From Nemertoderma westbladi (lineage: Eukaryota; Animalia; Xenacoelomorpha), in NCBI GenBank assembly GCA_032718475.1, contig JAUCBJ010000116.1, positions 1 through 64,000 of the forward strand: a DNA stretch of 64,000 nt, read 5' to 3'. Of the stretch, positions 1 through 55,781 are shown piece by piece. The notes beneath the pieces were generated by a model. It had not been told where the DNA came from, did no database searches, and worked only from the letters and a program-made list of their open reading frames with translations. Both the position numbers and the translations under genes were made by a program. Position 1 is the first letter of the stretch. Every line of letters starts with the position of its first letter.

Positions 1-523
1 AGGGATCCCGATTTATCCGATGTGGTATTTAGTCCACGCGTCCCCGCCGTGTATAAGAGTGAAATAAAGATAACTGAGTTCTGAAGTTCGGTGTATAATA
101 ATAGGTTATAGGATATAGATATATTGTGAATTATACGGCAGGCGGGATACGGTAACTAAAGTCCCGTGATCCCCTAACTAAACTAATTGGCTGTACCCTA
201 CGCTAGCACTGCTGCACTGAGATAACTGAATCACTGATTAATAGGTTATTGGTTATATTGCACGGTGGCCTTACTGCTACTCAATCGATGCTATTCCCCC
301 CCTCTGATTGGTTAATACCCTTGTTGGCGCCCCGTGGAGTATTCCCGTTCACTCCACCTGTTCTCTCTGGGTTAGGGGTTTGGCCCCTGACCCTCTATTG
401 TGTGCTTCCTTCCCACTCTTATTGGGATGGCACGAGTTGGTTAATTGCCAAATCTCGTGGCTCCCAATATTGCTTATCGGCTTACAACTTTATGGGGTGT
501 TGGCGGGATTGAATAAGCTAACA
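1..523 (-). repeat. 3' LTR of element A (about 16 nt missing beyond the window start)
   Basis: Near-identical to 21316-21838; one substitution seen (gccaaatc vs gcccaatc). Confidence 0.95.
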
Positions 524-532
524 CTCCCCCCC
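524..532 (-). other. Polypurine tract of element A
   Basis: Minus strand reads GGGGGGGAG then TGTTAG; an 11-bp hairpin at 533-561 lies just upstream. Confidence 0.85.
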
Positions 533-1232: not shown

Positions 1233-2924
1233 TTATCTGTTCCTCCTCACGTCCTCTTCCCTGGCCCGTTTCTTGGTTATCACCGCTCCTCTGGCATCAT
1301 CCGCTTTCTGCTTCCGGACCTTCGCTGCCACTTCCTTGCTGATCCCGGTCGTCGGCTCCTTGGGCGCTGGTGTTATTAATGCCCGATACCGCTTCGCCGG
1401 TGGCCCCTCAGAATGGCCTGGTTGTTTCCCTCGTGTGGCGTCCCATAGGATCATCTTCATTGCCTTTGGTACGTGTTCCGCCAAGAAATCCCTAAACTCC
1501 CTCCGGTTCTCTGGTGTCCACCTGTCCAGGTACCGTTGCGTGTTCATAACTCCGGCGAACGATGCCGCCGTTGCTACCTCTTGATAGGTAAACGGTAACC
1601 TTCGCTTTATGATTTCCATGTGGGTCTCCTGGTTTATGAGGAAGAAACCCCACTTGAACTCTTGGGCCTTCATGCGCTGGCGCGTCATGGCCCCGACGTC
1701 GGCCCACTCCTCGAACCTCGTGAACTTCTCCTCGTCGCTCATCCAGTCGCACTCGCGTCCGTAGTGCCCCCGAAAGTGGCACTTTGGACATCGGTTATGC
1801 AACCGTGGACACGCCCCCATCCTGTGACTTGGTTCTCTACAGTAGAGACAAAAGGTTCCCCGTTGGAACCGGTATAGGCAGCTGCTTTCCTGATGGGTCT
1901 GTCTCCCACAGTAGTCGCAGCCGAGTACCAATGTCTCCCGTCCCACCTCGTCCTTCGTCCCAAGCGATCTCCGCGGTCTATGGAGTCGCTGGTAGGCAAA
2001 CTTCTCCACGTTGCTCTCCCTGTTTACGTCGATCTCTCCGCCCCTCTCGGGCATCGTCTCCCCGAATACTATCCGTGGTGCCGTCCCCGGTTGCTCGCCC
2101 AACCTGATGGTGCTCCCCGCGAAATCCATCGCCGGCCCCTCGTGCACCCAGGTCCGCTTGCCGGATCTGTTCCAGAAGGCCCTCGCCCCACTGGCCGTCA
2201 CCACCCTTCCGCCAACCCAGTCCGTGTCCGAGTGGCCTATCCTTTCGATGGGCGGCATCTCTCCGAACTCGTCGTCGTCGTCCTCCTCTTCTGGTAGTGT
2301 CTCCAATCCCGGTATCCCGATGGATCCACTATGTCCCTTCCCGCCTTGGCTCTCGCCCGTAGCTCTCCATCCCTCTAGCTCCCTTAACTTCCTTGGCGGT
2401 TGGTCGCCCTCGGCGCCCGCTGGTATGGGCATCGCGTGCAACCCCGACGTCGACTGTTTCGGCGATCCCACCGTCCATCCCAATTCTCGCCCTAGAGACT
2501 CCCCCGAACTCCCCGACGAAGTCCAATGAGGTTCGTCTAGGCCCGCCTGTTCCTCGAAGCCATAACTCTGTGTCCTGGCCTCCTCTTCCCTCTCCTCTGC
2601 TTCTATCCTCTCCCGTCTAGCGACTTCTTCCAGTCGCTTTGCTTCCCGTCTATCCATCTCTAGCTGCTCCCATCTCTGATACGGTGTATCTGTCTCCCCA
2701 TCTACCAGATGTCGGCTGTTGTAGGACACCGACTCGCCCTTCAGCCCCGGGTGGTCTACCAGACCGTCAAAGGCCGTCTTAAAGGCTCTCCTGTAGCTTA
2801 GGGGTGATCCCGATAACAGAAATGCCCCTGGTTCCCTTTCGATAACTACGGTCATGAATAAGTTAAGCAAACTTATCATCATCCAGTCCTCCTGCAGGAT
2901 ATATCGCTTCTGATATACCTTTAT
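1233..2924 (-). CDS. C-terminal part of accessory ORF2 of element A: acidic linker, three CCHC zinc knuckles, basic tail
   Basis: CDYCGRQTHQESSC, CLYCREPSHRMGAC and CPKCHFRGHYGREC all fit C-x2-C-x4-H-x4-C; joins in frame at IKVYQKR to 11529-10687. Confidence 0.8.
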   Translation of the reverse strand: MKVYQKRYILQEDWMMISLLNLFMTVVIEREPGAFLLSGSPLSYRRAFKTAFDGLVDHPGLKGESVSYNSRHLVDGETDTPYQRWEQLEMDRREAKRLEEVARRERIEAEEREEEARTQSYGFEEQAGLDEPHWTSSGSSGESLGRELGWTVGSPKQSTSGLHAMPIPAGAEGDQPPRKLRELEGWRATGESQGGKGHSGSIGIPGLETLPEEEDDDDEFGEMPPIERIGHSDTDWVGGRVVTASGARAFWNRSGKRTWVHEGPAMDFAGSTIRLGEQPGTAPRIVFGETMPERGGEIDVNRESNVEKFAYQRLHRPRRSLGTKDEVGRETLVLGCDYCGRQTHQESSCLYRFQRGTFCLYCREPSHRMGACPRLHNRCPKCHFRGHYGRECDWMSDEEKFTRFEEWADVGAMTRQRMKAQEFKWGFFLINQETHMEIIKRRLPFTYQEVATAASFAGVMNTQRYLDRWTPENRREFRDFLAEHVPKAMKMILWDATRGKQPGHSEGPPAKRYRALITPAPKEPTTGISKEVAAKVRKQKADDARGAVITKKRAREEDVRRNR

Positions 2925-2927
2925 ATC

Positions 2928-3456
2928 TGTTAGCTTATCCAATTCCGCTAACACAAACCCATAGAGTGAGCCATAAAGCAATATTGGGAGCACGAGGTTG
3001 ATTACCAATCAACCTCGTGTCAGCCCAGTAAACGGGGACAATAGGCCCCAAAGGAGACACACACAATAGGGGTCAGGGGCCAAACCCCTAACCGAGAGAG
3101 AACACAGGGAGTGAAGGGAAACACTCCAAAGGGTGCCAACAGGGATATCAACCAATCAGAGGGGGGAAAGGCATCGATTGAGTAGCAATAAGGCCACCGT
3201 GCAATATAACCAGTAACCTGTAATCATTCATTCAGTTTACTCAGTCAGATCAGTAGGGTGGAACGGGGACTTCTGTCACCGTCCGCTACCGCCATTATAT
3301 ATTACCTGTTGTGTCATACTATACTATATCAACTATCAGACTATTATACCTTTATACATATTACCCAACATCAGAACTCTTTTACCTTTCACACACGGCG
3401 GGGACGCGTGGATAGAAAACCCAACGGATAAACCGGGATCCGTAGATCCCGTCACA
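2928..3456 (+). repeat. 5' LTR of element B (TG...CA, 529 bp)
   Basis: Diverged homolog of LTR A: TATA-like AATATAA near 3203, Inr-like TCAGTT near 3232, shared end GATCCCGTCACA. The end is inferred from A/B homology. Confidence 0.8.
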
Positions 3457-3465
3457 GTGACAGAA
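3457..3465 (+). other. Non-tRNA primer-binding site of B (GTGACAGAA)
   Basis: Exact reverse complement of TTCTGTCAC at 3271-3279 in the same LTR. Confidence 0.7.
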
Positions 3466-3585
3466 CTAGATCCGCCCAGCTGCCCTGACAGAGATAGAAT
3501 CCTAGCAGCTGCCCTAACAGTCTGACAGTGATAGAACTAGATCTAACCAACTGACAGACTGTGGCTGCCAGCTACCAAAGGCGAG

Positions 3586-6500
3586 ATGAGTCGAGAGAGA
3601 GGAACGACACCGCCGCGGACCCCGGACGACGATCTAACGATCCGCGAGGCCACGGCGAGACGATACGAACCCACGACGCCGGTCGATGCTACGCCGACCA
3701 CGTCGACGCCGGTTGACGCCACGTCGATAACGAGCAACCCGGCGAACCAAGATGTGGGGGGTCGTCTACGAGGAGAGAGCGAGTCGAGTAGAGGAGAGAG
3801 TGAGACGGGAGAGGAGAAAGACGAGTCGACGCGGAGCGAGGGTCGACATACCGATGTCACCGGCCAGCCACAGGCCGAGGGCGACGAGACGGCCCACCGG
3901 AACGGCAACGGTGGGGCCGCCGGTACGACGTCGGACCCGGAGAGATGGAGGGGAGGTCGGCGACGAGGATGTCGGGGTTTCTGATCGACTTCGACGAGCC
4001 TACGCCGCGACCCGGGAACAACTGAAGGAAGCTAGAGGAGGGGCTGAGATAGACCAGGTGAAGTTGAGGAGACGACTAGGTGAGTCGAACAGATACTTTG
4101 ATTACCTAGTGCGTTCTGGGCAGGGAGAACTGGCCGAGGAGAGAGCGAGAGGGGTTGCCTTCGAACTGTTTGGGCTATGGGAACGTAGGGGTATGGGGCC
4201 TGGTGTAGTGTACATAGGGCCATACTTAGTCGATGCCAGGGAAGTTAAGTTAGTGGGTTGGGCGGGACCGCACGAGGGCGAATCCGAGGTTAGCTCCGAG
4301 GATTCGGTCTCGTCGGTCAGCGAGGACCCCGGAAAGCGGGGGAAAGTTGAGTAGGACGGAGGGGCGGCGGGAGTCCGTCGCAACCGATAAGTCTGCTACA
4401 TCCTCCGCAAAAGAAAGACGGGTGCGAGAGAGTGAACGCATGGCATATAAATTAAAAATGGAAGAATTAGAGTGGCGACTGAGGGGAAGGAAGGAGCAAG
4501 AGAGTGAACGCGAAGAGCGTGAGGCAAGAGAACAGAGCGTGCGGTACACGTACAGTACGTACAGCAACCGTACGGGCGAGGGGGGTAGTAGTAGTGCGTT
4601 AGGAAATATTGGTATTAATAGTACCGTAGTAAATAACCCTAATCCCTTTATTACAGGAAATATTTTACCCGGTAGTAGTAATTTAAGTTTAAATTCAAAT
4701 AATAATATTAATTCAAATATTCAGAATAATCAAAATAATTCAAATAATTCGAATAGCAATTTAAATTTTGAAAATAATAATAATTCTAACTTAAATAATT
4801 TAAATAATAATCCCGTTTCAAATTCTAATAATTTAATTGATTTAACAAATAATATTGGGAATGGTGCTATTAATATGAACGTGTCAGACGTGTATAGCCC
4901 GGCAGACGGCGGCCTGGTAGGCCACGTAGTTAGTAGGCAGGAAGTGGCGGGGTTGCGCCAACCCGACGGCGGCCTGGTAGGCCACGTAGTTGGTAGGCAG
5001 GAGGTAGCGGGGTTGAGCCAACCCGAGGTGGGCCTGGTAGGCCTCGCAGTAGTAGAGAGAGAGGCGGGGGTGAATAGACCCAGCCGTAGTAGAGATAGTG
5101 TGTCGACTAGAGAGGGGTGTAGAGACGAAGTAAGAGATATTGAAGTTAGAAGTAGCGGGTGGGGGGGGGCTACGGGCACCCCACCGCGAGAGATTAGTAG
5201 CGAGAGAGGGGGGGCAGAGAGTGTCCCACAGGCGTCAGCGGATAATGCGCGGGCCGAATTAGGTAAACCGCAACACCCGGCGACGGAGAGTAATAGGGGG
5301 ATTGCGAGTATCCCCAGCGGCGTGCGATCGAGCAGAGAGAGACAGGTTGACGTCGCGAGAGGGCGGGCGACGGAACGTCGAGCCCAGTCAGAAGAGAGAA
5401 GATTAGTAGAGTTTAATAGAGAGGTCGAAGATAGGAGAAGATTAGTAGAGTATAATAGAGAGGTCGAAGATAGAAGAAGATTAGCAGAGTTTAACCGAGA
5501 GGTCGAAGAGAGAAGAAAGGAAGATAATAGAAGAGTCGTTGCTAGGAGCAACCGGAGAGCGAGGACGGATAGCGAGCCGTCGATAGTAGAGATGGAGTTA
5601 GGGAGTCAGTGGGGTCGAACTTCGGGAGATTGCCGTCGCCCCGGAGAAACGCACCGCACGCCAAGAGAGGGGTACAGGATGTACCGATACGAAGACGAGA
5701 GCAGGATAGGGGATCGAAGGGAAGCTTCCCGACGTGATATAGCTGCCGATCGAGAGTACGGTAGTCGCGGGGAGATTCGAGATTCGAGAAGAATAAACTT
5801 CGATTCGGAAGGGCACATGCAGACTGCAGGACATACTGTAGGCCTTACTGCACATACTATTATAGGCCATGCTGGGAGAGATAGAGTAGGCGATAGGGTA
5901 GCGCGGACGACGGGATTAAACCCGGAAGTCGCGGAGTACATACCGGTAGGTAGGCAAGAAGTGAATAGGCCTATATCGGTACCGGTACAGCAGCATGACT
6001 ATAATTTCCAGGGACACAACATATATCCAGGGGAGGGGAGAGTTATTGTAGATAGATGTATGGGCCCCAATATATTAACATCAACCCCAGTACCAAACAT
6101 ACCGGTGGGGGGGGGACAGGGTGACATTCCCCCATCACAATATCAACAATATACCCCAATAGGAGCGAGAACATCGAACCCCTTGGACGAGAACAGATCA
6201 TGCGACACGGAAATATGGAGGGGGCCGTTACCCCCAATGATATATCCGACGCAACAAATAAAATCAACAACAGATAGGACGGACGGACCGCACCCAACAG
6301 GAGAAACTATACAACATCCATCGAACCCATTAGAAGCGCAAGCGATGGGAATGGCCACATTGATCGATGCGTTAAAAACTAGGATCGAGTTACCACCTGT
6401 GGAACCATTTAAATTCGATGGGAGTAGGCCGGAAGAATATCTACAGTTTCGGCGCATGTATAGTAACGAAATATTAAGTAAGAACTTGACGCAGGCGGAG

Positions 6501-8414
6501 TGCCTAAAATATCTGCAAGTATATACAGGAGGCCCAGCATACGACATCGTGAGGCAATACCAGGGCATCGAGGGCGGCTTCACGACAGCATGGCGGGCGT
6601 TAGATAGGGAGTACGGGCACCCAGCCAAGATCATCCGGCAAACCCTGAGAGGCATAACATCGGATGGCCTACAGGACAATCCCGTTAGCATAAGGACCTT
6701 TGCGAACAAGGTCGAGAAGGCGTTAATCGTGTTAAAGACGCTAGACGCACCATACGAACTCAACGCGTCTAACAACATCACCACGATAGCGCAGGCACTG
6801 CCGATCTGGTTACGAAGGAAGTGGAGGAAAATCGCTTTCTCCACACGGGAAGAGAAGGGTGTGGAACCGGGCCTAGAAGAGATGTCGAGCTTCTTGAACT
6901 ATGAAGCCGAACTAATAACAGACCCAGTCTATAGCGAGGATAGTTTGGGGAAGGCACCTAAGACCGAATACAACTGGCCTGAACCCGAATATAATCCGAC
7001 AGACCCATTCTCGGGAGTGGGACAATCACTACCACATGCGGCCACACAGGGGACTGCTAGTCCACAGTTAGCTGGTAGCAGGGCCACACCGTGGCGGGGA
7101 CAGAAAGAAAATAACACCATAAATAAACATAATCCCAATGTACCCAGTAGGCCGAATACAGACAACCAAAACACTAAATCGGTACATATAAACCTACGCG
7201 CGATACGTGAGGGACTATACAGGGAACGCTATGATCCAGGATTCGAATGTCAATTACATCGGGATGGAACACATAAGACCAGGAGTTGTAAGCACTGGCA
7301 AGCGTTGCCCAAACAAGATCGTATAGCCTACACAGACGCGAACGGACTATGTCATCGATGTGTGGTAGAAGGACACAGGTCCGGAGAGTGTAGAGAGACA
7401 GCAGTTAGAGAGTCCGAGACTGGAGGCCAGGCAATGGCCACAAGCACGACAGAAGAGGAGAAGAAGAGAAAAGTACTACTCGGGGTAGTACCAGTAAAGA
7501 TATCAGGAGAGGGCGGTCGATCAGTAACGACATTAATGCTGGTCGACAGCGGAGCAGCCTTCACGCTGGTGGAGAACTGGGTGGCCGAAGAGATAGGGCT
7601 AAAGACAAGGCCGAATAGAATGGCGGTGACTACCGTCTCGAGTAAAGATGAGGTCCTGGAGACGAGGGCGGGGCGGTGCAGGATAGCAGCGATTGCACCG
7701 GGATGCGACTATGGGGCGACGATCGACCCCATCCACGTCATCGAATCGATAAACATCAACGCCAGGCGACCAACCAACATTGAGGTCGAGCAGTATAGAT
7801 TCCTGGACGGTATCGATTTCTCAATACCAAAGGTGGACGTTAGGAAGGTGTCCATTATAGTAGGGATGGACTGCCCGACGGCCCACGAGAGAACGAAGAC
7901 GGTCTTCGGCGAAGACAGGCAGCGGGACCCGACGGCGATCCTCACGCCGTTCGGATGGACGCTTAGCGGCCCAGTTAAAACTAAGATCCCATGCAGTGTG
8001 ACAGAGACATCAGGGTGCATGTTACCAGGCACCGCAGACATAGAGGACGAAGATAAGAAGCCGGAGGAGATAGTAGAGCCAGATAGGGAGGTGACAGTAA
8101 GAAAGTGGGCAGAGGAGAGTAGGTTTCCCAGCAAGCATCGGTATGGAGATGAAGCGGAGCGGACGGCGAGGTGTCCGGAGGACAACACTCCAGAGGAGTG
8201 TCTGGAGGAGTGTCTGAGGAGTGTCAGAGGAGTGTCCGGAAGAGATGCCGGTCCGGTTTGGAGGCATACCGACAAGGGGGAAGTCGAGAAGGAAGGCAGG
8301 ATGGAAAGGAATAGGACTACTGTTCTGCCTGTTCTTTCACTTTCTATTCATTCTGCCGGCGGGAGACAACAAAGAAAGAGATGGCATTTTGATGCCAAGA
8401 GAGGACATAGTTAA
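3586..8414 (+). pseudogene. gag: gag-protease of B (two +1 insertions near 3888 and 4349; open 1355-aa frame 4347-8414; RT/RH/IN deleted)
   Basis: LPPVEPFKFDG BEL gag domain, zinc knuckles, protease LVDSGA; colinear with A until GCMLPG. Confidence 0.85.
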
Positions 8415-8749
8415 GAAGGCGGTGGAGAGACCCGATTTTGGGGTGGTAAAGGGGGAGAGCCAATTCCAGATGAGTTGGAGTTGGCGAGGAAAGTGGGTGG
8501 AAAGATAAGAGGACGCGCAGGGGGACAGCGGGACAGTGCCTCATGGAAGAATCGATGGAAGATCGAGGGGCAGCTTAGAGTTTAGTCGTCCAATATTTGG
8601 ACTGAGGGGGGTGGGAATGAGGGCGAGACGCCCTTCCCACAAGAAATTAATTATTTAATTAAAAATAAAAATAAATAATAATAAATAATTAAATAATTAA
8701 AATAATAGTTAGTAGAAGTAAGAGGTAGTTCGAAGATAGGAGAGTAGAG

Positions 8750-9480
8750 ATAGAAGGCGGCGGGGCAAGGGAGTGTGGCATATTGTCATGCCACGAGTAG
8801 TAGTAGTGGGGTTGTGGGCACCGTAAGCGCCACGTAGAAGGAGAGTAGGTTAGAAGGCGGCGGGGTAAGGGAGTCTGGCATATTGTCATGCCACGAGTAG
8901 TAGTAGGGGGGTCGTGGGCACCGGAAGCGCCACGTAGAAAGTAGTAGGAGAGAGTGGTTGTGGGCACCGGAAGCGCCACGTAGAAAGTAGTAGGAGAGAG
9001 TGGTTGTGGGCACCGCAAGCGCCACGTAGATAGAGGTATTAGTTGAGGTGGAGATGTAGATAGAATGTTAGAGGTAGTAGAGAGGGCACATAGGGTGCCA
9101 GAGAGTAGAGTAGTAGAGAGGGCACATAGGGTGCCAGGTAGTAGAGTTAGAGTGTTAGAGGTAGTAGAGAGGGCACATAGGGTGCCAGAGTAGTAGAGAG
9201 GGCACATAGGGTGCCAGGTAGTAGAGTAGTAGAGGGTAGAGAGTAGAGTGGTTGTGGGCACCACAAGCGCCACGTAGATAGAGGGTTTTAGTTAAAGTAG
9301 TAGTAGAGTGGTTGTGGGCACCGTTAGCGCCACGTAGATGGAGGTAGAGTTAGTAAGAGGGTACATAGTACCAGTTGTGGTTGTGGGCACCGTTAGCGCC
9401 ACGTAGATGGAGAAAAGAGTTAGTAAGAGGGTATGTAGTACCGGTTGTGGTTGTGGGCACCGTTAGCGCCACGTAGATAG
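8750..9480 (+). repeat. Tandem array of short hairpin-containing units in B
   Basis: Repeated GTGGTTGTGGGCACCGnnAGCGCCACGTAG and GGCACATAGGGTGCC with GTAGAG-rich spacers. Confidence 0.9.
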
Positions 9481-9504
9481 AGTTAGCAGAAAGTTAGAGG
9501 GTTT

Positions 9505-10686
9505 TCCCGCCTGCCGTATAATTCACAATATATCTATATCCTATAACCTATTATTATACACCGAACTTCAGAACTCAGTTATCTTTATTTCACTCTTATA
9601 CACGGCGGGGACGCGTGGACTAAATACCACATCGGATAAACCGAAGAAGGAGAAGTTTGCCTACCAGCGACTCCATAGACCGCGGAGATCGCTTGGGACG
9701 AAGGACGAGGTGGGACGGGAGACATTGGTACTCGGCTGCGACTACTGTGGGAGACAGACCCATCAGGAAAGCAGCTGCCTATACCGGTTCCAACGGGGAA
9801 CCTTTTGTCTCTACTGTAGAGAACCAAGTCACAGGATGGGGGCGTGTCCACGGTTGCATAACCGATGTCCAAAGTGCCACTTTCGGGGGCACTACGGACG
9901 CGAGTGCGACTGGATGAGCGACGAGGAGAAGTTCCAGAAGGCCCTCGCCCCACTGGCCGTCACCACCCTTCCGCCAACCCAGTCCGTGTCCGAGTGGCCT
10001 ATCCTTTCGATGGGCGGCATCTCTCCGAACTCGTCGTCGTCGTCCTCCTCTTCTGGTAGTGTCTCCAATCCCGGTATCCCGATGGATCCACTATGTCCCT
10101 TCCCGCCTTGGCTCTCGCCCGTAGCTCTCCATCCCTCTAGCTCCCTTAACTTCCTTGGCGGTTGGTCGCCCTCGGCGCCCGCTGGTATGGGCATCGCGTG
10201 CAACCCCGACGTCGACTGTTTCGGCGATCCCACCGTCCATCCCAATTCTCGCCCTAGAGACTCCCCCGAACTCCCCGACGAAGTCCAATGAAGTTCGTCT
10301 AGGCCCGCCTGTTCCTCGAAGCCATAACTCTGTGTCCTGGCCTCCTCTTCCCTCTCCTCTGCTTCTATCCTCTCCCGTCTAGCGACTTCTTCCAGTCGCT
10401 TTGCTTCCCGTCTATCCATCTCTAGCTGCTCCCATCTCTGATACGGTGTATCTGTCTCCCCATCTACCAGATGTCGGCTGTTGTAGTACACCGACTCGCC
10501 CTTCAGCCCCGGGTGGTCTACCAGACCGTCAAAGGCCGTCTTAAAGGCTCTCCTGTAGCTTAGGGGTGATCCCGATAACAGAAATGCCCCTGGTTCCCTT
10601 TCGATAACTACGGTCATGAATAAGTTAAGCAAACTTATCATCATCCAGTCCTCCTGCAGGATATATCGCTTCTGATATACCTTTAT
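9505..10686. other. Templated patchwork: inverted LTR-A piece (9505-9640 = rc of 12-147), inverted ORF2 piece (9649-9934 = rc of 1722-2007), direct duplicate (9931-10686 = 2169-2924)
   Basis: Direct sequence comparison; GTTC microhomology at 9931-9934; two amino-acid-changing substitutions seen between the 756-bp copies. Confidence 0.9.
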
Positions 10687-11529
10687 CGCTCCTCTGCGAA
10701 ACTGATATACCTCCTGCTTTCCCGGTCTCGCTCCCCACTTCAGCGAGTTCGCTAGTTCTGCTCCGTATTCTTCCCTAAACTTCCCCCAATCCATTGGTTT
10801 GTGGCATACGAGCCCCAATAATTGGCCCATCGCCACCGCCCCGCATTGGCCTGAGTTCTCGACCACCCCCAATCCATCCGGTGCCGTCATAGCCATAAAG
10901 ACTTTCTGCATATCCAGGAGGTTGGTGGCGTCCGGACCGATGATCCTCTCCGCGTCCTCGCGAATCGCCGATCCCACTTTCGTCGTCGACTTCTCTCTTA
11001 CTAAGACTTGTACCGCTTTCGGCAGTCGGTCTAATTTCGGCCCGTCCTTCTTCCCATACGTCCCTAGGTCGAATAAGAAGATGTCCCCATTCGGCGCGGC
11101 CAAATGTAGGAGTATGGTCCTGGCCGACCCTGCCGTTCCTCGTCTTGAACCCGCTTCGTCCTCCACGGTTCCCTCGTCATCTAGGATCATATATCCTCCT
11201 CTGTTGACGGACTCTATGAATCTTTTCCAGTCCTTCCTCGGCGATTCCCTCGGATACTTCGGAATCCCGAACTTCGCTTCGTCCCCTTTCACCACGTAGT
11301 GGAAGTGTTGGAAGATCGCGTTGTCCAGCGACGGCGTCCCGTAGGTCCCGACCAACCGCTGTTCGTGCGCCTCCCGGAAGTGATCCTGCAGCGCTCGTGC
11401 CGCGTGACCCCTTTCCAACCTCTCGTAGTATCCTCTCGTCTTCTCCTCCGGGTGTCTTTCGGTGAAATCCACCAATATTTCTTTTCCTCCTGACTCCGCC
11501 TTTCTCTTCCTGATCAGCTTACTCGCCAT
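9931..11529 (-). CDS. N-terminal part of ORF2 of element A with a WRN/EXD-like DEDD 3'-5' exonuclease domain (about 10640-11210)
   Basis: ILDDEG (ExoI), LLHLAAPNGDIFLFDL, LP...KVGSAIRED (ExoII), LLDMQ, LLGLVCHK, QKRYILQED (ExoIII-like); ATG at 11529 followed by an RKRK NLS-like motif. Confidence 0.72.
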
Positions 11530-12042
11530 TCCGAACACTACACTCGCTCACCTGTAGGGTGGTGCCTTACCAAGGCGCAATACAGATGAGTGATGTATTA
11601 AGATGTTTCGTACAGTTCGATAATGGCCTACTTTTCTACTTAACTGCGCCTTTCAAGCTTAATTTAATCTAATTAATTTCGGAGCTAGTAAATCAGCCTA
11701 ATTTACAATTTCCGTCCGTTACTTTTATTATGTTCTAGAACGACTTTCCTTGTGTTACCACTATTTTTCGATTTTTAGCCCTATTCTATTTATTTATTTA
11801 TTTTGCTTTGATTCTACTGTCCTACTACTTACTACTGCCTATGGATTTATTCTATTCTCTCTCTGATCCATATTCTGGCCTACTCAGTGGGCCTATGCAG
11901 TACAGCAGTATGCGTCGTGTGGCCACACGATTTATCCAGCTGCACTCATATGCCCCCCTCTCTCTACTAACTCTACTTACTGCTAACTAATATCTATATC
12001 CTATTTACCCCTTTTACCTCTTACTCTCTCTCTCTAACTAAT

Positions 12043-12625
12043 GGTACTACGTACCCTCTAACTCTAACTCTGACTAGGTACCACGTACCTACTAACTCTA
12101 ACTCTAACTAGGTACTACGTACCTACTAACTCTAACTCTAACTAGGTACTACGTACCTACTAACTCTCTAACTATCGGTACTACGTACCCACTAACTCTC
12201 TAACTCTAACTAGGTACTACGTACCTACTAACTCTAACTAACTATTGGTACTACGTACCCTCTAACTCTAACTCTAACTAGGTACTACGTACCTACTAAC
12301 TCTCTAACTATCGGTACTACGTACCCTCTAACTCTAACTAACTATTGGTACTACGTACCCTCTAACTCTAACTCTAACTAGGTACTACGTACCTACTAAC
12401 TCTCTAACTATCGGTACTACGTACCCTCTAACTCTAACTCTAACTAGGTACTACGTACCTACTAACTCTCTAACTATCGGTACTACGTACCCTCTAACTC
12501 TAACTCTAACTAGGTACTACGTACCTACTAACTAACTAACTCTAGGTACTACGTACCTACTAACTAACTAACTCTAGGTACTACGTACCTACTAACTAAC
12601 TAACTTTAGGTACTACGTACCTACT
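12043..12625 (-). repeat. 18 copies of the hairpin GGTAC-GTA-GTACC with (GTTAGA)n spacers in A
   Basis: Copies counted directly; lies between the pol stop and ORF2. Confidence 0.9.
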
Positions 12626-12746
12626 AACTAACTAACTATTATTTTTATTTTATTTTATTTTTATTTGTGTGGGAAGGGCGTCTCGCCCTCAATCCCACCC
12701 CCCTCAGTCCAAAACTTGGACGACTAAACTCCACTCTAACTCCGCT

Positions 12747-17954: not shown

Positions 17955-20900
17955 CGGGGGTAGCGGCCCCCTCCATATGTCTGTATCACACGACCTGTTT
18001 TCATCTAGGGGTCTCGTTGTTCTTGTTCCTGTCGGGGTATATTGTTGATATTGTGATGGGGGAATGTCACCCTGTCCCCCCCCCCACCGGTATGTCTGGT
18101 ACTGGGGTTGATGTTAATATGTTGGGGCCCATACACCTATCCGCAATAATTCCCCCCTCCCCTGGGTATATGTTATGTCCCTGCATGCTGTAGTCATACT
18201 GCTGTGCTGGTACCGGTATAGGCCTATCAGCTTCTGGCCTACTCGCCGGTATGTATTCCGCGACTTCCGGGTTTAATCCCGTTGTCCGCGCTATCCTATC
18301 GCCTACATTGCCTCTCTCAGTATGGCCTACGGTATGTGCAGTAAGACCTACAGTATGCCCTACAGTCTGCATGTGTTGCTCGGGATCGAAGTTTATTCTT
18401 CTCGAATAATCCTCCCCGCGGCTACCGTATTCTCGATCGGTAGGTATATTCTGTCGGAAAGTTTCTCTTCGACCCCCCTCTCCACTGTTTTCATCTTCGT
18501 ACCGGTACATCGCGTACCCCTCTCTCGGCGTGTAATGCGTCTCACCGGATCGCATCCCTCCGGGGCGACGGCAATCTCCCGGAGTCCGACCCCACTGACT
18601 CTCCGTTCTCATCTCGACTACCGACGGCTCGCTGTCCGTCCTCGCTCTTCTATCTTTTGCGGCGATACTTCTACTACTCTCTTCCTCTCTTCTCCTATCA
18701 GTGGAATATTCCCGCTCACGAGATCCCTCGTCGACCTCCCAGTTAAACCCCACTGTTCTTATTTCCTCCTCTGATCGGGCTCGACGCTCCGTCTGCCCTC
18801 CCGCGACGTCAACCTGTCTTTCTCTGCTCGATCGCACATCGCTGGGGATACTCGCAATCCCCCTATTACTTTCCGTCGCCGGTTGTTGCGGTTTACCTTG
18901 TTCGGCCCTCGCATTGTCCGCTGACGGCTGTGGGACACTCTCTGCCCCCCCCCCCCCCCCTCTCGCCGCTAACACTCTGTTGTGGGGCCCTTGTAGCCCC
19001 CCCCCCACCCGCTACATTCTACTTCGCTACCTCTCGCCCCGCTACTATATATCTCTCTAGTCGACACATCAACCCTACCACAGTCGGGTCTGTTCAGCCC
19101 CGCCTCTCCCTCTGCTATTGCGTGGCCTTCCAGGCCCTCTACTCCCTGCCTACCAACTACGCGGCCTACCAGGCCCTCTGCTCTCTGTCTACTAACTACG
19201 TGGCCTACCAGGCCCTCTGCCCCCTGTCTACTAACTACGTGGCCTACCAGGCCCTCTGCTCCCTGGTTACGTAGGCCCGACGTGTTTACATTAATAGCAC
19301 CCATATTGGAAACGGAATTAATTTGCTCATTTGAAACAAAATCATTTGTATTATTCTGCGCGACTACGTTATCTGAATTATTTTGTAAATTCGGGCTAAG
19401 ATCATTATTTGAATTATTCGAATTATTCTGTGTAATTGCGTTATTTAAGTTATTTTGTAGGTCCGAATTCGAGTTATTATTTTGATTATTTGAATTATTT
19501 TGCGTAACTACATCAATATTAGGATTATTTTCTACACTAACACTGGGATTGTTCTGATTTAAATTTAAATTACTACCACTAGGCAAAGTATTTCCTGTAA
19601 TAAAGGTTTGATTAGCGTTATCCCATACGGTACTATTAATATCAACAACGTCTACTGTACCATTATTATTACCCCCCCCCCCCCGCCCGTACGGTCGCAC
19701 CAGTTTTGGGTCTGTCGTGCGGTCCCTGTCAGTGGAGTATTAATAAATATATCTACGGCCCTCGGCTCCTCAAAAATACTCGAGCCGGCCCCGGTTTCCG
19801 ACGGCGTCGCTCGCACGTATTCCAACTCGTGCTCCCCTCTAATTATATTTCCCGCAAACTCACTCTGCCGTTTCTCTAATTCCTTGCGCTCTTTTTCACT
19901 CTCTGCCATTTTCCCCTCACGCTCCTGGGTGTCCTTGATGGCCGAGTCTGCGGCACTCTTAATGCTCTCCCTTCGTCTCGCCTCACGCTCTTTGCGTTCC
20001 TTTTCCTTTCTCGTCTCATATTCCTTGCGTTCCTTTTCCCTTTTTGCCTCACGTTCCTTGCGTTCCTCGTCCTCCCTTGCCTCACGCTCTCTGCGTTCCC
20101 TTTCCTCTCTCGCTTCACGCTCCCTACACTCCCTTTCCTCTATCTCATCATACTCCCTTAGGCTTTTCAAAGCCCTTTCTGCCCTTTCTCCGGTTTCTCT
20201 AAGCAATACCGTTTCCCTCTCTAACCGCACTCTTCCCTCCTCTAGCCGTTCCTTCATTTCTCTCTGACCTTGCTCTGCCATGCTGAGACGGTATGCGGCT
20301 CCTATTTTCCTCACCGCTCTTTCTTTCGCGGAGGATGTAACAGACTTATCGGTTACGACGGATTTCCCCCGCCTTCCCGACCTACTAACTTTCCCCCGCT
20401 TCCCGGAGCTTTCTCCGACCGACGAGGCCGAATCCTCGGTGTTAACCTCGGATTCGCCCCCTTCGAGTCCCCTCCAACCCACCGGTTTTACTCCCCGGGC
20501 ATCGATTAAGTATGGCCCTATGTACACTGACGCTATGCTAGGTCCCATACTCCCACACTCCCATAGTTCAAACAGTTCGCCTGCAATTCCTTTTGCTCTC
20601 TCCCCGGCTAGTTCTCTCTGCCCAAAACGTATCAGGTAATTTAAGTGTCTATCCGACTCACCTAGTCGCTTTCTCAGTCTCACCTCGTCTACCTTCGCCC
20701 CTTCCTTCTTGGCGTCGTTTATCAGCTTCCGGGTCGCGTTGTAGGCCCGTCGAAGTCGCTCAGAAACCCCGACGTCCTCGTCGCCGACCTCTCCTCCGTC
20801 CCTCCGGGTTCGACGTCGTACCGGCGGCTCCACCGTCGCCGTTCCGGTGGGCCGTCCGTCGCCCTCGGCCTGTAGCTGGCCGGCGACATCGGTACCAATC

Positions 20901-21220
20901 TCTCCTCCGTCTCTTCGCGTCCGGCGTCGCACCGTAGGCCCCACCGGTTCGGTGGGCCGCTCGTCGCCCTCGGCCGGTAGCTGGCCGGCGACATCGGCGC
21001 GCCGTCCTCCGTCCCGTGTCGACTCATCTCCTTCTCCCTCCGTCTCGCTCTCTTTCTCTCTTGGCTCGACTTCGGGTTCCAGGCCCTCCTCGTCCTGTGC
21101 TTCCGGTTCGCCCGTTATCGATGGCTCCGGCGTCGTGGGCCTGTATCGTTTGGTCGCGGCCTCGCGGATCGTTAGGTCTTCGTCCGGGGTCCGCGTCGGT
21201 GTCTCGCCCGATTCACTCAT
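17955..21220 (-). pseudogene. gag: Long N-terminal gag extension of A (coiled coil, Asn-rich), split by frameshifts at poly-C runs
   Basis: Frames 19652-21220, 18969-19700 and 18067-19008 are colinear with the frame of B; breaks fall at C runs near 19675, 18950-19000 and 18080. Confidence 0.8.
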
Positions 21221-21290
21221 CTCGTTTGTGGCTAATGATTCGGCTAGCTAGGTTGCAGTTCTTAGAGTTTAACTAGGGCGGCAGCTCGGT

Positions 21291-21299
21291 TTTAGTTAC
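21291..21299 (-). other. Non-tRNA primer-binding site of A (GTAACTAAA)
   Basis: Exact reverse complement of TTTAGTTAC inside the LTR (minus strand 21475-21467; 160-152 in the 3' LTR). Confidence 0.7.
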
Positions 21300-21838
21300 T
21301 GTGACGGGATCCAGGAGGGATCCCGATTTATCCGATGTGGTATTTAGTCCACGCGTCCCCGCCGTGTATAAGAGTGAAATAAAGATAACTGAGTTCTGAA
21401 GTTCGGTGTATAATAATAGGTTATAGGATATAGATATATTGTGAATTATACGGCAGGCGGGATACGGTAACTAAAGTCCCGTGATCCCCTAACTAAACTA
21501 ATTGGCTGTACCCTACGCTAGCACTGCTGCACTGAGATAACTGAATCACTGATTAATAGGTTATTGGTTATATTGCACGGTGGCCTTACTGCTACTCAAT
21601 CGATGCTATTCCCCCCCTCTGATTGGTTAATACCCTTGTTGGCGCCCCGTGGAGTATTCCCGTTCACTCCACCTGTTCTCTCTGGGTTAGGGGTTTGGCC
21701 CCTGACCCTCTATTGTGTGCTTCCTTCCCACTCTTATTGGGATGGCACGAGTTGGTTAATTGCCCAATCTCGTGGCTCCCAATATTGCTTATCGGCTTAC
21801 AACTTTATGGGGTGTTGGCGGGATTGAATAAGCTAACA
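21300..21838 (-). repeat. 5' LTR of element A (539 bp, TG...CA)
   Basis: Matches 1-523; end at 21300 inferred from the CCCGTCACA terminus shared with B. Confidence 0.88.
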
Positions 21839-24440
21839 TTTTTGATAATTCTTCAATTATCCTTCTAAGTGCCAAAATGGGCTCCATGGTCCCACGACCT
21901 TTACGGAACCCATTCTGATTTCCACGGAGCAGTCTCTCAATGGGATCCCTGATGCGATTTAATAGAATCCTATTGTATAGCTTTGCAGCAATCGAGATCA
22001 ATGAGATTCCCCGAAAAGAACCATAGAGTGTTAGGTTGCCCTTCTTGGGAACTGGCACCAACTTATTTGTTTTCATTTCTTGTGGGACTCTTGTTGTTCG
22101 GTACATGTCTACTATGATGGGATAGATGAGCTTTAAACACTCAGGTATTTTAAAGACCTCAGGGGGAACACCATCTACTCCACTGGCACGATTGGTCTTA
22201 ATGCTCTTTGCAGCAGCCTTCACTTCTGCAAAGGAGATATCGCCAATGGGAATATCTGGGAGTACAGACTCAGACACTTTTACTTCTATAAAGTTATCAG
22301 GCAATACCCTGTCATTATTGAGGAGCTTTTCAAAGTGGGCTTTCCAACCATTGAGGCGATCGGCTGGGGATTCAGCCTTAACCTTGGTGGTTGGTTGGCT
22401 TTTCCGCCCAGTAAGCAAATTGATCGATTTCCATGACTGGGATGATTGCCTGCTGTCGTCAGCATCATTGATGGCATCAACCTGTTGGTTTATTAGCTCC
22501 TGTAGATTAACAGAGTACTGCCTGTTCAGGGACCTAGATGCAGCCTTAACTGCATTCTTGGCCGCTGTAGTCTGTTTGAGTCGGGACTCTTTCTGCGCCT
22601 CATGAAGGTCATTTCGGCACTTCTGAATTTTGTTGTCAGTCCAGGGGGCCCTTTTCCTGTTTCGAGGGTATACAGGAACTGTTTATGCAGCTGCTAACTT
22701 AACTGCTTCTGTAAAGGCAGTATAGCCCTCACAGTGATCTGCCGCCTCAGAGGCAAGAGCCTCATACCTATTGCTCAGCTGTAGTGTGAAGCTGGATCTC
22801 ACACTTGGCTGTTGCAACAGAGAGGACCAGTAATGCCGCGGCAAGGCAGATTTCGTTGTTCTGCTAGCACGCAGACTAAGTCTTACCTTGGCTACAATAA
22901 GGCGGTGATCACTGGAGAAGGGTCGAAGTGTAAATGCATTACAGTCTTGTATAGAGCTCCTGTATTTCCTACGAAACAGAATATGGTCTAACTGGGACTT
23001 GTGACCACTGGGTCCACTATGAGTCCATAGCTTTCCTATTCGCTTCTTGACTGGGTTCCAGCCGAAAACAATCCATTTCCAGAGATAAAATCCTGAAGAT
23101 GGACAGAATTTCGGTTAACACTATTGCTATAGACCCAGGGCGATGTAGGTGATTGATGCAGACTCGCATTAAAGTCTCCCAGGAATGTTAAGAATGCATG
23201 CTGATCCACTCCATCAGTAGCTGCTTGTAGATTGTGGTAGAAATTTTCCACCTCCTCTACAGGGGCAACACTAGTTGGAGAGTAGCACACAATCAGAACC
23301 ACCTTAGGAAACTTCTTAACCAGTCTTCCAGAACATGAGAAGTGGCAACGGATGATGCGGTTAGAGATTTGGTCTATTTTGTCCAATGCTGCATGTGCAG
23401 TTGGATTCATCAATAGACCAATTCCACCATTGCCACTATCATCTGCTGACGCGAGGGCGAGTCGCCAACCGCCCCCCATGTCCTTAATCACAACCTCATC
23501 AGTCTGTCCAGTCTGCATTCGGTGCTCTTGAACACCCACTGCGCTAAGAGAAAGCTTATCTGCCAAGGCAGTCAGCTCACCTTGTCGCATTGGGGACCCG
23601 ACATGTTAGGGTGTTTACTGAGGCTAGTCTAGTGACTTGCCTCAGATTCACCAATGGCTTTGTTGGTCGGGGTGGAACATGAGAGTAGCCTCCAACTCCA
23701 GAATTCCTCTCCCCATCACAATCTGGCCTCCCTGGTGACCCAGGGTTTGGGCCAGAAAGGTCATCAGGAAAGGGACTCAAAGAATTGTTGGCTGCTCTCT
23801 CTCCAGTAGGGGGTGAGACAGGCAGCCAGTCAGGAGTTAACTGACGCCTGTGAGGCCAATTGTGTCCGGTAATTCCACTGGCCTCTAGTGGCCGGACCTC
23901 CGCATTGCTAATGTAATCCATAGTGGGGGTTGGGGGGTGCTTTTTTGCCGAGCCAGCTCTCAGGGCAAATACCACACCCTGGTTTGCCATTCCACAGGGT
24001 GGGTGTCGCAATGGAGTCAGATATGAGACCCATCACCCATATCTACTCTGGTGTACATGACCCACCATTGGCTGTTGCAGCTCATCTGCTGGGTCATGCC
24101 CTGTACCCTTGCTGCCAGGTGCAGGTCGCAGTGAAGTGCTCTCAGAGTGGACATGAGAACACTCTACTCCTGACCAGCCATTGGTAGATCACCATCTGCC
24201 TGGTCAGGCCATATACCCCTGCAGCCAAGTATATGGGTCCTTAATCCAGGACCAAGGGCGTCCTTATCCCAGAACGAAGGGGGTCCTAGTTACAGGACCA
24301 GATTTGCCCTAGTAAGAGGGGCTATGCAGCTACAGGTGGCACCTCCTTTATGCTGCATGGAGGTGGCAAGTTTTCTTGATCAATGACCTAGAATACCTGA
24401 CCTGACCCGACGCTGTACTGCAATGCTCTCTGGTCACGTA
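21839..24440 (-). mobile_element. RTE-like LINE (5'UTR, APE endonuclease, start of RT), frameshifted and interrupted by element A
   Basis: VGVQEHR, GIGLL, VCYSPT, LGDFNA, LDHILF, SDHRL; RT ASGVDG, PKKGNL, RGISL, QNGFRKGR; 5' boundary approximate. Confidence 0.8.
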
Positions 24441-24964: not shown

Positions 24965-25957
24965 TCTATATATATAAATATCGATTGTCTGTCTGTGTGT
25001 TTGTCATCGGCGGGAAACGTCGTTATATCGAGGTGAATTTTATACATCATTTATGTGCGAATGCGTATTTGTGGTCAAATTGGGCTATTATTCCATAACC
25101 ATTTTCAGCCAAATTTGTCAACCAGCAGGAAACTCTATAACAGCGGTTGCACCAACAGACTCAATCTGTTCTAAATGATACTTTGCAGATACGTTCCTGA
25201 CCATAGACTGTGTGTTTTGGAAGACACTGATCAATCTGCAGTCCTCCAGTCTGCCACTAGGGGGCGAAATGTCAGAAACTGAAAACCTTCTCCCATTTCG
25301 TTATTATTAAAGCCTTTTAGCTGATCTGTGGCAGAGGTCTACTATACCATAGGCTGTGTGTTTTCGGAGGATGCTGACCAATCTGCAATTCCCCAGTCTG
25401 CCGCTAGGGGGAGAAATATCTGAAAGTGAAAACCTTATCCCATTTCATTGTTTATAATGCTTTTTTGCTGATACTTGGCAGAGGTCTACTACACAAAGAC
25501 TGCGTGTTTGGGGAGGAGCTAGAACAAGTCTGCATTTCTCCAGTCTACCGCTAGGGGGCCAAATGTCTGAAAGTGAAAACCTTATCCCATTTCGTTATTA
25601 ATAATGCTTTTAAGCTGACACTTGGCAGATGTGTATTACACCATACTGTAGGGTGTGTGTCTGGAGAGGACGCCGAACAACCTGCAGTTCTCTATTCGGC
25701 CGCTAGGGGGCGAAATGACGGAACGTGAAAACCTTATCCCATTTTGATGTGTATAATGTTTTTAGGCTGATACTTGTCAGAGGTCTACTACATCAAAGAC
25801 TGCGTGTTTGTGGAGAACTAAGACCAATCTGCAATAGCTCTGTCTGCCGCTAGGGGGCGCAATGTCTGAAAGTGCAAACCTTTATGCATTTCATTGTTTA
25901 TAATGCTTTTTTGCTGATACTTGGCAGAGGTCTACTACACCATAGACTGTGTGTATT
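24965..25957 (+). mobile_element. Truncated non-autonomous Helitron-like element (family H1) with five ~147-bp repeats
   Basis: TCTATATATATAAA start, (GTCT)n, homology to 29050-31166 and 62824-64000. Confidence 0.7.
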
Positions 25958-27019
25958 TGAAACAGAACCAATTTACTCTCCCATTCAAATTATAATTTAA
26001 TTAGTATTACTTATAGGCAGCAGAGCATATGGTAGTCCCTGGCCATCATAAATACATCATTGGACTGGTTTTAAGTTCTTGAATATATTTATTTTTAAGT
26101 TCTTGTATATACTTATACGATTATGTAATATTTAGAACTTGTTCAAAGATATCAATTATATCAGAAATAATGCTGCAACAAAATCATAATTAACTTCAAT
26201 ATTATACTTTAATATATTCTTGGTAAATCTGCCCAAACCTGCACTGTTGCGAACATGACATGTGTTCATATGTTTATAGAGATAATATATATATACCAAT
26301 CTGTCAGTATCCTCTCCTACAATTCAATGTTACTCTAAATTTAATTATCCTAGCCAGTCGTCCACAGGGACATCTATGTGTTGACGTGGTGGTTGCCACA
26401 AAAGTAGATCCGTCTTCACTTCTCTAGATTCCATGTTTATTTATATTACATATTAGTCAGTTCAGCAGTTAGTACTTAGTAGTAGGCCTACTGCAGGTAT
26501 TGTAGGCAGTTTAGATAAATCAAATTGCTTGTTAGAAAACTGTGCAAGTTACAAAAGCGTGAACACCCTACACTGGCTTGCTGTAAGTGAACTAGTTAGT
26601 TCACTTGTTGCCAATTCTTCTGATTGGTTCTTAGCTATTGGGGTAGTAGAAATTAAGATATAGTAATCGATTGGTTAGTACTCTCTAGCAAGTCACTGAA
26701 ACAATATTGGGGAATCGCCTACAGTGATTCATCCCTGTACAATCTATGCACTATGGATAAGCAATATATATATATATGTGTGTGTGAAACCCGTTTACTG
26801 TATGACAATATAATAGATTGCTCAACACATGATCTTCACTTTGATTGGCCGACAGGCCATATTGCTACATTGACTTTGCTAGGTAGTAATAAGACAGCTC
26901 AACTGCATGCAACCCAACAGCTCAACTACATGCATTTCTCAAAAAGACGCAGCATTTGTTATGTTACATATACTCCAAGAATCAGCTTAAACATATTAAG
27001 ATCAACGAAATGGACAATG

Positions 27020-27230
27020 TTATTATCACTTTCATATGTTCGCCATCTAGCGGTAGACTGGAGAACTGTAGATGAATTACCTTCCTAAAAAAAGATTCAG
27101 CATTTGGTTGCATTCAGCAATAATGAGCCAATTTCATATGTTCACCATTTAGCGGTAGACTGGAGAACTGTAGATGAATCACCTTCATAAAGAATGATTC
27201 AGCATTTGGATGCATTCAGCAATAATTAGC
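27020..27230 (-). repeat. Two inverted remnants of the CTCF-motif repeat unit
   Basis: Reverse complement reads CTACAGTTCTCCAGTCTACCGCTAGATGGCG. Confidence 0.7.
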
Positions 27231-27362
27231 ATGTCAAAATGGTAACACCGACAATGATAACAACGCAAACAACTTTTTTCCAAAATTTACCCAACCCTGG
27301 CAGCATTGCCAACTTTGTGGCTCGACCCACAAATCATAATTTATTTTAATATTATCTATCTA

Positions 27363-29049
27363 TCTATATAAAAATATCTCGTGTGTCTGTCTGTTCGCTT
27401 TTACGTTTCGCCTCATCTCTACCATTTATCGCGATTGTGACAGATTCGGAACCGGCCTGACTTCGGACGTTGCAACGTGACATTTTCTAGAAAGTTACAG
27501 GTGTCATTTTCGTTTTAACGCCGTTTTATCCCACAAATCAGTGTTAGCTGCTACCCATAAAATATAAAACCATTATTCCAGGTGATCTGCGTTTGTACCT
27601 AGGCAGACGGGGTACTGCTGACTGCGGTACTGGTAATGCATATTACAGAATTAGGCCTATGCCTAAATGCTGTTGTTGTTGCTGTACCGGTGGCCGGTAC
27701 TGCAGTACTGCTGTACTGTGGTAACGGAACGGTAATTTTATTTTTTGGGTTCCCCGGTCAGACTGTCAGACGGTAGCGCAGTAGGCTTTTTGTTCGTATC
27801 GCAGCGGACATGCTGACATGCATTGCTGCACTTCAGCACTTATCAGACTCGTCACGGTCCGCCGGTACCGGTCAGCCGGTACCGGTATTACAGTATTACG
27901 ATTAGGGCTGTAGGGTAACTGATCTGACTGAACTGTACTACAGTACTAGTGTTAGTGTATTATAATACCAGCTGACCGGTACGACTCTGCGACTACTGGT
28001 ACGATGCCTACTGTTATAATCAGATAATGCCTCCGAAAAAGAGAGCCAGACTGACACATAGAAAGAAGAACCGAGATTCTTCCAGGGTGGCGATAACAAG
28101 AGCATTGGAAAATGATGTCGATATGGAAATTCGCCTGGCTACGGATCGAACTGCAACAGCACGATCTTCTGAATCTGCCGCAGAACGGGCAACTCACCAG
28201 ACAGCGCATAGGGTTGCAACTGCAACAGTGCGATCTTTAGAATCTGCCGCGGAACGGGCAACTCGCCGGACAGCGGATAGGGCTGTAGGGTTGCAATTGC
28301 AACAGTCTGACAGTGCGATCTTTAGAATCTGCCGCGTAATGGGCAACTAACTCGCCGGACAGCGGATCGAGTTGCAACTACAATAATGCGTGGCAGTGAA
28401 ACTGCTCAGCAATGGGATGCTCGACAAACTTTAAATCGTGATGGCCAACTCTACGGTCGCATCTTCTGATCTTCCCGAGTTATCCATCCTGATAACCTTC
28501 ACTACGCATTGAAAGAAACAGCCAATGAAGTCACCTGATTGTAATTGATATGTTTCATGAATGGGGACTACAAATTCTCTAATTGGCGACACTGGAGATT
28601 GATTTGTGAGTCCGAGCCCAGATAAATTATCTACAAGGGGGTCGGTCGTGTGTAATCCAGTAATCCGAGCACGGAATGGAAGAATCGTAATTGAAAAATT
28701 TGAGCCACATCGATTTTTTGGCCGGATCTCATCTGGAATCAATTGTCTTACTTGATATTCCATTGCATAATTGTGTAGTTTACAACTTTTATTGGTTGAA
28801 ATTAATTATTTTGTTCAGAATGATTTGGTAATCAATTAAATTTGGTTATTATAAAGAATTCTAATATCTTATTATTATTGTCACTGGGGAAACTCATTAA
28901 GCAGAAATTTCCAAAGGCAGTTTAGTTCATATGACTTTTAATCCATTGATAAAAAAAAAACTTAATTTAATTTAAAACTTAATTTCTCACTTTGTGGCTG
29001 CTTGCGGTCTAACTAGAAAGTCTGTGGCTGAAGGCCACAGGCTTTCTAG
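27363..29049 (+). mobile_element. Internally deleted Helitron (family H3)
   Basis: 5' TC start, 3' hairpin ending CTAG at 29049, RepHel N-terminal remnant; 5' part homologous to 53651-53870. Confidence 0.7.
28027..28440 (+). pseudogene. Remnant of a Helitron RepHel N-terminus with STPR-like ~23-aa repeats
   Basis: MPPKKR start; ESAAERAT...ADR repeats; frameshifted after 28290. Confidence 0.55.
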
Positions 29050-33085: not shown

Positions 33086-33096
33086 GTAGGAATACG
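33086..33096 (+). other. Non-tRNA primer-binding site of C (GTAGGAATACG)
   Basis: Exact reverse complement of CGTATTCCTAC at 32028-32038; directly abuts the LTR end defined by comparing both LTRs. Confidence 0.65.
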
Positions 33097-55622: not shown

Positions 55623-55781
55623 CAATTAATATCTACTGCTAATGGTACACCTACACATCCCATACCCCACCCCCACCCCCATATATTTTCCCAACTGGCA
55701 CGTCATAATTTCCCTACTACCCCTATATCATCAACCACAACTGCCAATACATACAATCCTATCACTAACCCAGCTCCATCC

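Follow-up and report, generated by a model that had tools for sequence, protein, structure and literature searches.

A BEL/Pao retrotransposon of Nemertoderma westbladi carries an ORF3 with a predicted DEDDy-type exonuclease domain and three zinc knuckles

Introduction

The bdelloid rotifer elements Juno and Vesta are LTR retrotransposons whose PR-RT-RH-IN order and GPY/F motif are those of the Ty3/gypsy type. Rodriguez et al. (2017), who report this domain order and motif, describe DEDDy-type ORF3s in both elements and in the Athena/Terminon elements (PMC5408684). In the passages of that paper devoted to them, the Juno and Vesta ORF3s are non-envelope frames that follow pol, carry an RNase D-like DEDDy domain with an altered acidic motif (DEED) and lack a transmembrane segment; no fusion to zinc knuckles is noted there. 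The same passages name 3'-end processing and Mut-7-like activity as possible roles of DEDDy ORFs and argue for their exchange among retroelements. Athena/Terminons are non-LTR, Penelope-like telomeric elements with many ORFs, including a DEDDy accessory ORF with a proposed part in 3'-end processing (PMC5408684), an account repeated in the relevant section of PMC6431247.

Two sets of cellular proteins and one set of retroelements offer further points of comparison. RNase D, WRN-exo, Nibbler/Mut-7 and EXD2 (PF01612) have the motifs ExoI (DxE), ExoII (KxG...D) and ExoIII (Y-x3-acid) in that order. Egalitarian, EXD1 and Maelstrom, which are host genes, share the fold and bind RNA in the germline, and Egl is named in the title of a structure as binding I-factor RNA. 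The retroelements Tf1 and sushi have a primer binding site (PBS) that directly adjoins the LTR and can pair with part of it; the Tf1 complement is 11 nt long, its primer is cut by RNase H, and the pertinent passages report no extra nuclease (PMC7175516, PMC4600332, PMC6317226). According to the same sources, self-priming elements of this kind are Ty3/gypsy, and the mechanism has been proposed for some plant copia elements.

Here we analyse a window of 64,000 nucleotides (positions 1 to 64,000, forward strand, of contig JAUCBJ010000116.1, assembly GCA_032718475.1), which holds an LTR element, A, whose ORF3 fits by description the DEDDy ORF3 type of Juno, Vesta and Athena: it is a non-env frame that follows pol and lacks a transmembrane segment. 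Element A differs from Juno and Vesta in being BEL/Pao, in the acidic motif of its ORF3 (D-E-D-E vs DEED) and in three zinc knuckles, and its LTR organization is unlike that of Athena/Terminons. Its ORF3 shares the motif order of the cellular DEDDy exonucleases but is unlike them in having Glu at ExoIII, ∼35 extra residues between ExoII and ExoIII, a knuckle fusion and a Pfam score below threshold, and beyond the predicted fold no LOTUS or further domain in common with Egalitarian, EXD1 and Maelstrom was seen in it. The PBS of A resembles that of Tf1 and sushi, with a complement of 9 nt rather than 11. Whereas DEDDy ORF3s were already known from rotifer LTR and Penelope-like elements, a literature search conducted mostly at the level of titles and abstract openings, with few subscription papers, found no report of a DEDD nuclease ORF in BEL/Pao elements, of its fusion to knuckles or of a D-E-D-E motif.

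Element A and its third open reading frame

Element A is a BEL/Pao LTR retrotransposon with the domain order PR-RT-RH-IN (Table 1). Its gag-pol frame contains DUF1759 (Pfam E = 1e-10), an aspartyl protease, RT, Peptidase_A17 (5.6e-40), integrase and DUF5641 (3.8e-24), with all three of the quoted matches above cutoff; a Pfam scan of the first of the gag-side frames found no family. The single difference between the LTRs at 523 comparable bases indicates that the insertion is young.

Table 1. Features of element A and of the neighbouring elements in the window
Feature	Coordinates	Strand	Basis or remark
Element A, LTR element	1-21838	-	Paired LTRs and PPT enclose the ORFs
3' LTR of A, cut by window edge	1..523	-	
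PPT of A, adjoining 3' LTR	524..531	-	
ORF3, 3' piece	1233..2924	-	End lies 710 bp ahead of 3' LTR
Three CX2CX4HX4C zinc knuckles	1749..1919	-	Exact motif matches
Element C, sister nested in A	2928..9500	+	LTR 2928-3456; PBS 3457-3465 complementary to 3271-3279
Inverted scrap of A's LTR	9505..9643	+	
Inverted scrap, identical to 1722-2007 (knuckle region)	9649..9934	+	4-nt overlap at junction
ORF3, 5' piece, aa 1-533	9931..11529	-	
756-bp direct duplication, first copy	9931..10686	-	Second copy 2169-2924
Helical, charged stretch (aa ∼361-400), then an acidic linker rich in Gly/Pro/Ser (aa ∼400-520)	9970..10480	-	Composition
Predicted DEDDy-type 3'-5' exonuclease domain, aa 96-320	10570..11244	-	Remote similarity; D117, E119, D192, Y289, E293
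34-bp tandem-repeat spacer, pol to ORF3	12017..12640	.	
BEL/Pao gag-pol open frame of A, 1788 codons	12747..18113	-	Pfam domains
Gag-side low-complexity frames of A, three overlapping frames	18067..21247	-	
PBS of A, flush with LTR end, without TGG start	21291..21299	-	
9-nt LTR segment complementary to A's PBS, candidate self-primer	21467..21475	-	A complement of this kind exists for ∼0.2% of window 9-mers
5' LTR of A, TG...CA, 539 bp	21300..21838	-	Matches 3' LTR at 522/523 comparable bases
Element B LTRs	31167-33085 and 46973-48891		1919 bp, 99.1% identical

ORF3 lies between pol and the PPT, in the env position, with its ATG at 11529, 1218 bp beyond the pol stop. A preliminary description of this DNA had placed an ORF there, and we likewise find it to be the third frame after pol, ahead of the PPT and the 3' LTR. 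The joined frame of about 844 aa proposed at that stage is also borne out: 11529-10687 gives 281 codons from the ATG, and 2924-1233 gives 563 codons and a stop. The link between 10687 and 2924 is not arbitrary, because the two pieces share a 756-bp direct duplication whose copies are in the same reading frame and differ at 2 positions. Just upstream of the ATG, at 11545-11560, is a splice-site-like motif, CAG/GTGAG, which could be a donor or an acceptor.

This copy of ORF3 is rearranged. Along A, the order is ORF3 from 11529 to 9931, the inverted copy of 1722-2007, the inverted LTR scrap, element C on the opposite strand, and ORF3 again from 2924. As assembled, the 5' frame crosses into the inverted scrap, where a stop at 9892-9894 ends it after 545 codons and leaves it without knuckles. 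The nuclease-like region lies wholly inside the single frame 11547-9892 and requires no join. The rearrangement may be an assembly artefact. Contigs from read sets X2 and X3 diverge from the window at 9931 and continue with sequence corresponding to the 3' piece immediately below 2169, which indicates that un-rearranged ORF3s are present among the copies. Matching contigs numbered 5283 in X1, 2859 in X2 and 2737 in X3 (the three sets come from two studies, and X1 and X3 are from one sample), and all identity bands were occupied, which fits a multi-copy and diverse A family. A further set, X5, tentatively an RNA set, gave 5 contigs and was set aside as evidence of expression. In a post hoc observation, the LTR scrap at 9505-9643 begins 4 nt downstream of the candidate self-primer, near the expected end of a strong-stop cDNA, but falls short of the end of the LTR; it may record a template switch.

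A predicted DEDDy-type exonuclease domain

Residues 96-320 of ORF3 very probably have a DEDDy/DnaQ-type fold, as the preliminary description had proposed from motifs and as both a language-model search and a profile test with shuffle controls indicate. The domain is remote from known families: it reaches no Pfam family at E values up to 1 and stays below the PF01612 gathering score, it has no NCBIfam family, and a PDB sequence search returned 0 matches at E = 10. In a language-model search of the ESM Atlas with aa 90-350, 25 of the 30 matches carried PF01612 and 5 were unnamed eukaryotic clusters. The best PF01612 match scored 0.94 (176/256 features), with the annotation on only 34% of the members of the best named cluster, and the unnamed clusters scored up to 0.95; by chance rates measured on entire proteins, a score of 0.9 is attained by 4-10 of 100 shuffled sequences.

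For the profile test, we collected 120 bacterial loci carrying an ExoI motif and kept the 72 in which the motif lay in a frame of 150-260 aa; all six of the profile proteins that were tested belong to PF01612 above cutoff. Against this 72-protein profile the ORF3 domain scored 10.0 bits vs 4.6 for the best shuffle (none of the 974 reported shuffles, of 2000 made, attained the score of the domain), and it ranked first of 293 six-frame segments of the window (E = 0.026; next 1.8). An hhalign comparison gave a score of 38.2 and a probability of 73%, compared with a maximum of 22.0 among 150 shuffles and with 12.2 for the reversed sequence, with the three Exo motifs colinear. Eight other frames of the window reached no more than 18.

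The DxE, KVG...D and Y...ED motifs noted earlier are present as D117-x-E119, K184-V-G...D192 and Y289...E293-D294. The alignment is colinear through D117/E119 of ExoI, the LHL...LFDL strands, K184-x-G186...D192 of ExoII and Y289 of ExoIII, and ExoI D-x-E and the ExoII Asp have the order and spacing of PF01612. D117, E119, K184, G186, D192 and Y289 occupy invariant columns of a 52-row alignment in which identity to bacterial PF01612 members is 14-23%, and ∼35 additional residues separate ExoII from ExoIII compared with the cellular enzymes. The DEDD assignment holds in part. D117, E119 and D192, together with Y289, align with catalytic positions, whereas Glu takes the place of Asp as the fourth acid: the ExoIII pattern Y-x3-D is absent, with E293 in the Asp column and D294 beside it, so that the motif reads D-E-D-E.

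AlphaFold was uninformative on the single sequence (pLDDT 31.8). When supplied with a borrowed alignment of 51 of the 72 bacterial exonucleases it gave a model with pLDDT 72.6 and pTM 0.74, a circular result that speaks to compatibility only. The best fold match of this model had Z = 12.5 with an rmsd of 3.5 over 162 residues, which is not independent of the alignment. The DnaQ-fold matches of the model, with Z values from 12.5 to 11.5, were apPol exo, RNase D, WRN, Nibbler, diDNase, Egalitarian and Exd1; because the top matches tie within one Z unit, they do not assign the domain to a DEDDy subfamily.

Linker and zinc knuckles

A charged helical stretch and an acidic linker separate the predicted exonuclease domain from three CCHC knuckles, a motif that binds single-stranded nucleic acid. 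All three knuckles (1919-1878, 1850-1809 and 1790-1749) are exact. They had been assigned to the interval 9931..11529; they are indeed part of ORF3, but they lie outside that interval, in its 3' piece. Atlas look-alikes of the C-terminal part of the protein are multi-knuckle proteins (DUF8363, zf-CCHC) that score at most 0.88 and offer a lead only. The highest mean hydropathy over 19 residues is 1.3 in either piece and falls on the ExoIII helix, in agreement with the earlier statement that there is no transmembrane segment. We considered and rejected an envelope gene for ORF3, which has no transmembrane anchor.

Selection and relatives of ORF3

Variation among copies indicates that ORF3 is under selection and that the protein matters to the A family, as the excess of synonymous change implies. 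In the core of the domain (10635-11195), 34 of 40 changes were synonymous (40 of 58 variants); for transitions the expected share is 0.34 (p = 3e-11; crude omega 0.09). The wider region, whose variants overlap the core set and, like it, had adjacent changes scored singly, gave 25 synonymous changes among 35 coding variants (from 40 of 162 variants). By part, again from 40 of 162 variants, aa 5-310 had 16 synonymous changes out of 18, aa 331-520 had 7 out of 13 and the knuckle scrap had 2 out of 4; in aa 331-520, 6 of the 13 among the variants listed replace a residue. Among the indels listed, none with a share of at least 10% falls inside ORF3, and several lie upstream of the ATG. The exonuclease claim had originally been staked on conservation of the acidic residues among copies, and it came through: among the variants listed, codons D117, E119, D192, Y289, E293 and D294 are variant-free.

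A search of 1.84 billion representatives found no homolog of the domain; the sole match, a 19-residue stretch repeated 14 times in a tandem-repeat protein, was rejected as an artefact. Likewise, there was no ORF3 homolog in metagenome contigs, phages or viral contigs (0 loci) or in word-indexed, length-limited searches. An integrase query for relatives with their flanks returned one contig of 1459 bp, too short to hold ORF3, and none among viral contigs. The idea that ORF3 was captured from a host gene is unproven, since these searches found no donor and the relevant part of PMC5408684 argues for exchange among retroelements.

Primer binding sites of elements A, B and C

In each of the three BEL/Pao elements of the window, the PBS abuts the LTR and can pair with part of that element's own LTR, over 9 nt in A, 9 nt in C and 11 nt in B, a Tf1-like signature of candidate self-priming. 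In A and C the complementarity falls 1 nt below the 10-nt cut-off of PMC6317226, and no GT-AG splice join in either element yields a primer complement of at least 10 nt. Our literature search, largely at title and abstract level, found no report of self-priming in BEL/Pao elements.

Element C is likely a non-autonomous sister of A. It retains gag-protease in a frame of 1386 codons. Its match to the pol of A extends to residue 650 and is regained at the integrase end, and the element then terminates inside the spacer, short of ORF3; missing from it are RT and RNase H, most of the integrase, ORF3 and the 3' LTR. Its 9-nt pairing is retained with letters that differ from those of A on both sides (chance share ∼0.002 each). 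The preliminary description had cited C as showing the priming signature without an exonuclease. We rejected C as a domain-free control: it is a deletion derivative that ends where ORF3 would begin, and this makes it uninformative on that point.

Element B is a distant BEL element with a Pol identity to A of 33-35%. Its PBS (33086-33096) has an 11-nt complement at 32028-32038 in its own LTR (chance share 0.0007). After pol it has a frameshifted ORF of ∼500 codons with a Cys/His cluster (43357-44994, + strand), and the post-pol frames of B gave no exonuclease signal, no similarity to the ORF3 of A and no meaningful Pfam match. B is decayed and is a single element, so that it provides one contrast rather than a survey. 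At the boundary given by blast, its LTRs start with TA rather than TG.

Function of ORF3

With a probability of about 0.5, we interpret ORF3 as an accessory RNA-directed 3'-5' trimmer that acts outside the core steps of reverse transcription. ORF3 would be a predicted exonuclease of DEDDy fold, in a D-E-D-E variant, joined to three knuckles that would grip single-stranded RNA while a two-metal site removes 3' nucleotides. Its most likely substrates would lie in the germline: small RNAs of the host, intermediates of silencing, or the transcript ends of the element itself. The reading as an enzyme is favoured by the kept catalytic positions and by selection. The knuckles are the sole evidence on RNA vs DNA, and it is from them that the RNA reading is drawn. 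Because the other BEL lineage, represented by B, carries a different ORF at the same place, ORF3 would be a swappable helper module, and this swap between lineages points to a host-facing or helper role. The narrower proposal that ORF3 is a transposon-encoded, Nibbler/Mut-7-like trimmer of piRNA or siRNA 3' ends that suppresses germline silencing is rather unlikely. If small RNAs of the host were indeed trimmed by it, ORF3 would represent a rare case of an animal transposon armed with an enzyme against silencing.

A possible, if doubtful, alternative is that the domain is a non-catalytic RNA-binding DEDDy fold of the Egalitarian/EXD1/Maelstrom kind, which would carry, protect or localise element RNA in the germline. 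The Glu in place of the ExoIII Asp suits this idea, but such a substitution is still able to bind metal, which counts against it, as do the three acids and the Tyr that are kept despite 14-23% identity to the family and the variant-free catalytic codons among the variants listed. In the borrowed-alignment model, Egl and Exd1 tie with active nucleases (Z = 11.5 vs 11.7-12.5). The putative catalytic residues of Egalitarian are described as dispensable for RNA binding and function (PMC13186709), and the same non-catalytic possibility is raised in the text on DEDDy ORFs in PMC5408684.

It is unlikely that ORF3 is instead a packaged enzyme that polishes cDNA by removing non-templated or mismatched 3' nucleotides so that the LTR ends suit integrase. 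The resemblance of the knuckles to nucleocapsid motifs counts in favour of this role, which is also suited by a PBS that, like that of Tf1, directly abuts the LTR end, and by the DNA-acting enzymes WRN and Pol A exo, which share the top places among the fold matches of the borrowed-alignment model. The Tf1 RT is reported to add non-templated 3' nucleotides to most cDNA (PMC11042837). Against cDNA polishing, B shares this PBS layout although its ORF3 is unrelated, and the ORF3 of A is a separate frame that opens 1.2 kb past the pol stop and shows no sign of fusion to Gag-Pol.

We consider it very unlikely that the DEDDy resemblance is coincidental and ORF3 an unrelated orphan accessory protein. 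The lack of a family-library match and of a homolog in our searches, an hhalign probability of only 73% and an uninformative single-sequence model would suit coincidence, but the language-model search and the shuffle-controlled profile agree, the three motifs are colinear at the expected spacing, and the low scores of the eight other window frames also argue against it. Weakest among the options raised earlier, and most improbable, is that the minus-strand primer arises when the enzyme trims RNA back to the self-complementary PBS duplex: A does have a self-complementary PBS that is kept by matched changes in C and lacks a tRNA-type TGG start, but B has its longer self-complementary PBS without the domain, in Tf1 it is the RNase H of the element that cuts the primer free (the relevant text of PMC7175516), and a 3'-5' exonuclease would be expected to destroy the template before it could free a 5'-terminal primer from an intact transcript.

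As an accessory trimmer, the ORF3 of A would extend the non-envelope enzymatic ORF3s from rotifer elements to BEL/Pao. It also offers an unbroken domain to assay for a question of role that dates from 2017, and the outcome of such an assay would separate counter-silencing, RNA chaperoning and cDNA polishing.

Surroundings of element A

LINE-type RT frames are found at 21789-22682 (- strand) and 54600-58709 (+ strand). The first of these stops at the 5' LTR of A, which indicates that A inserted into a LINE. Related arrays of 146-147 bp repeats at 25000-31000, 49700-53200 and 62500-64000 probably sit inside repeated DNA elements.
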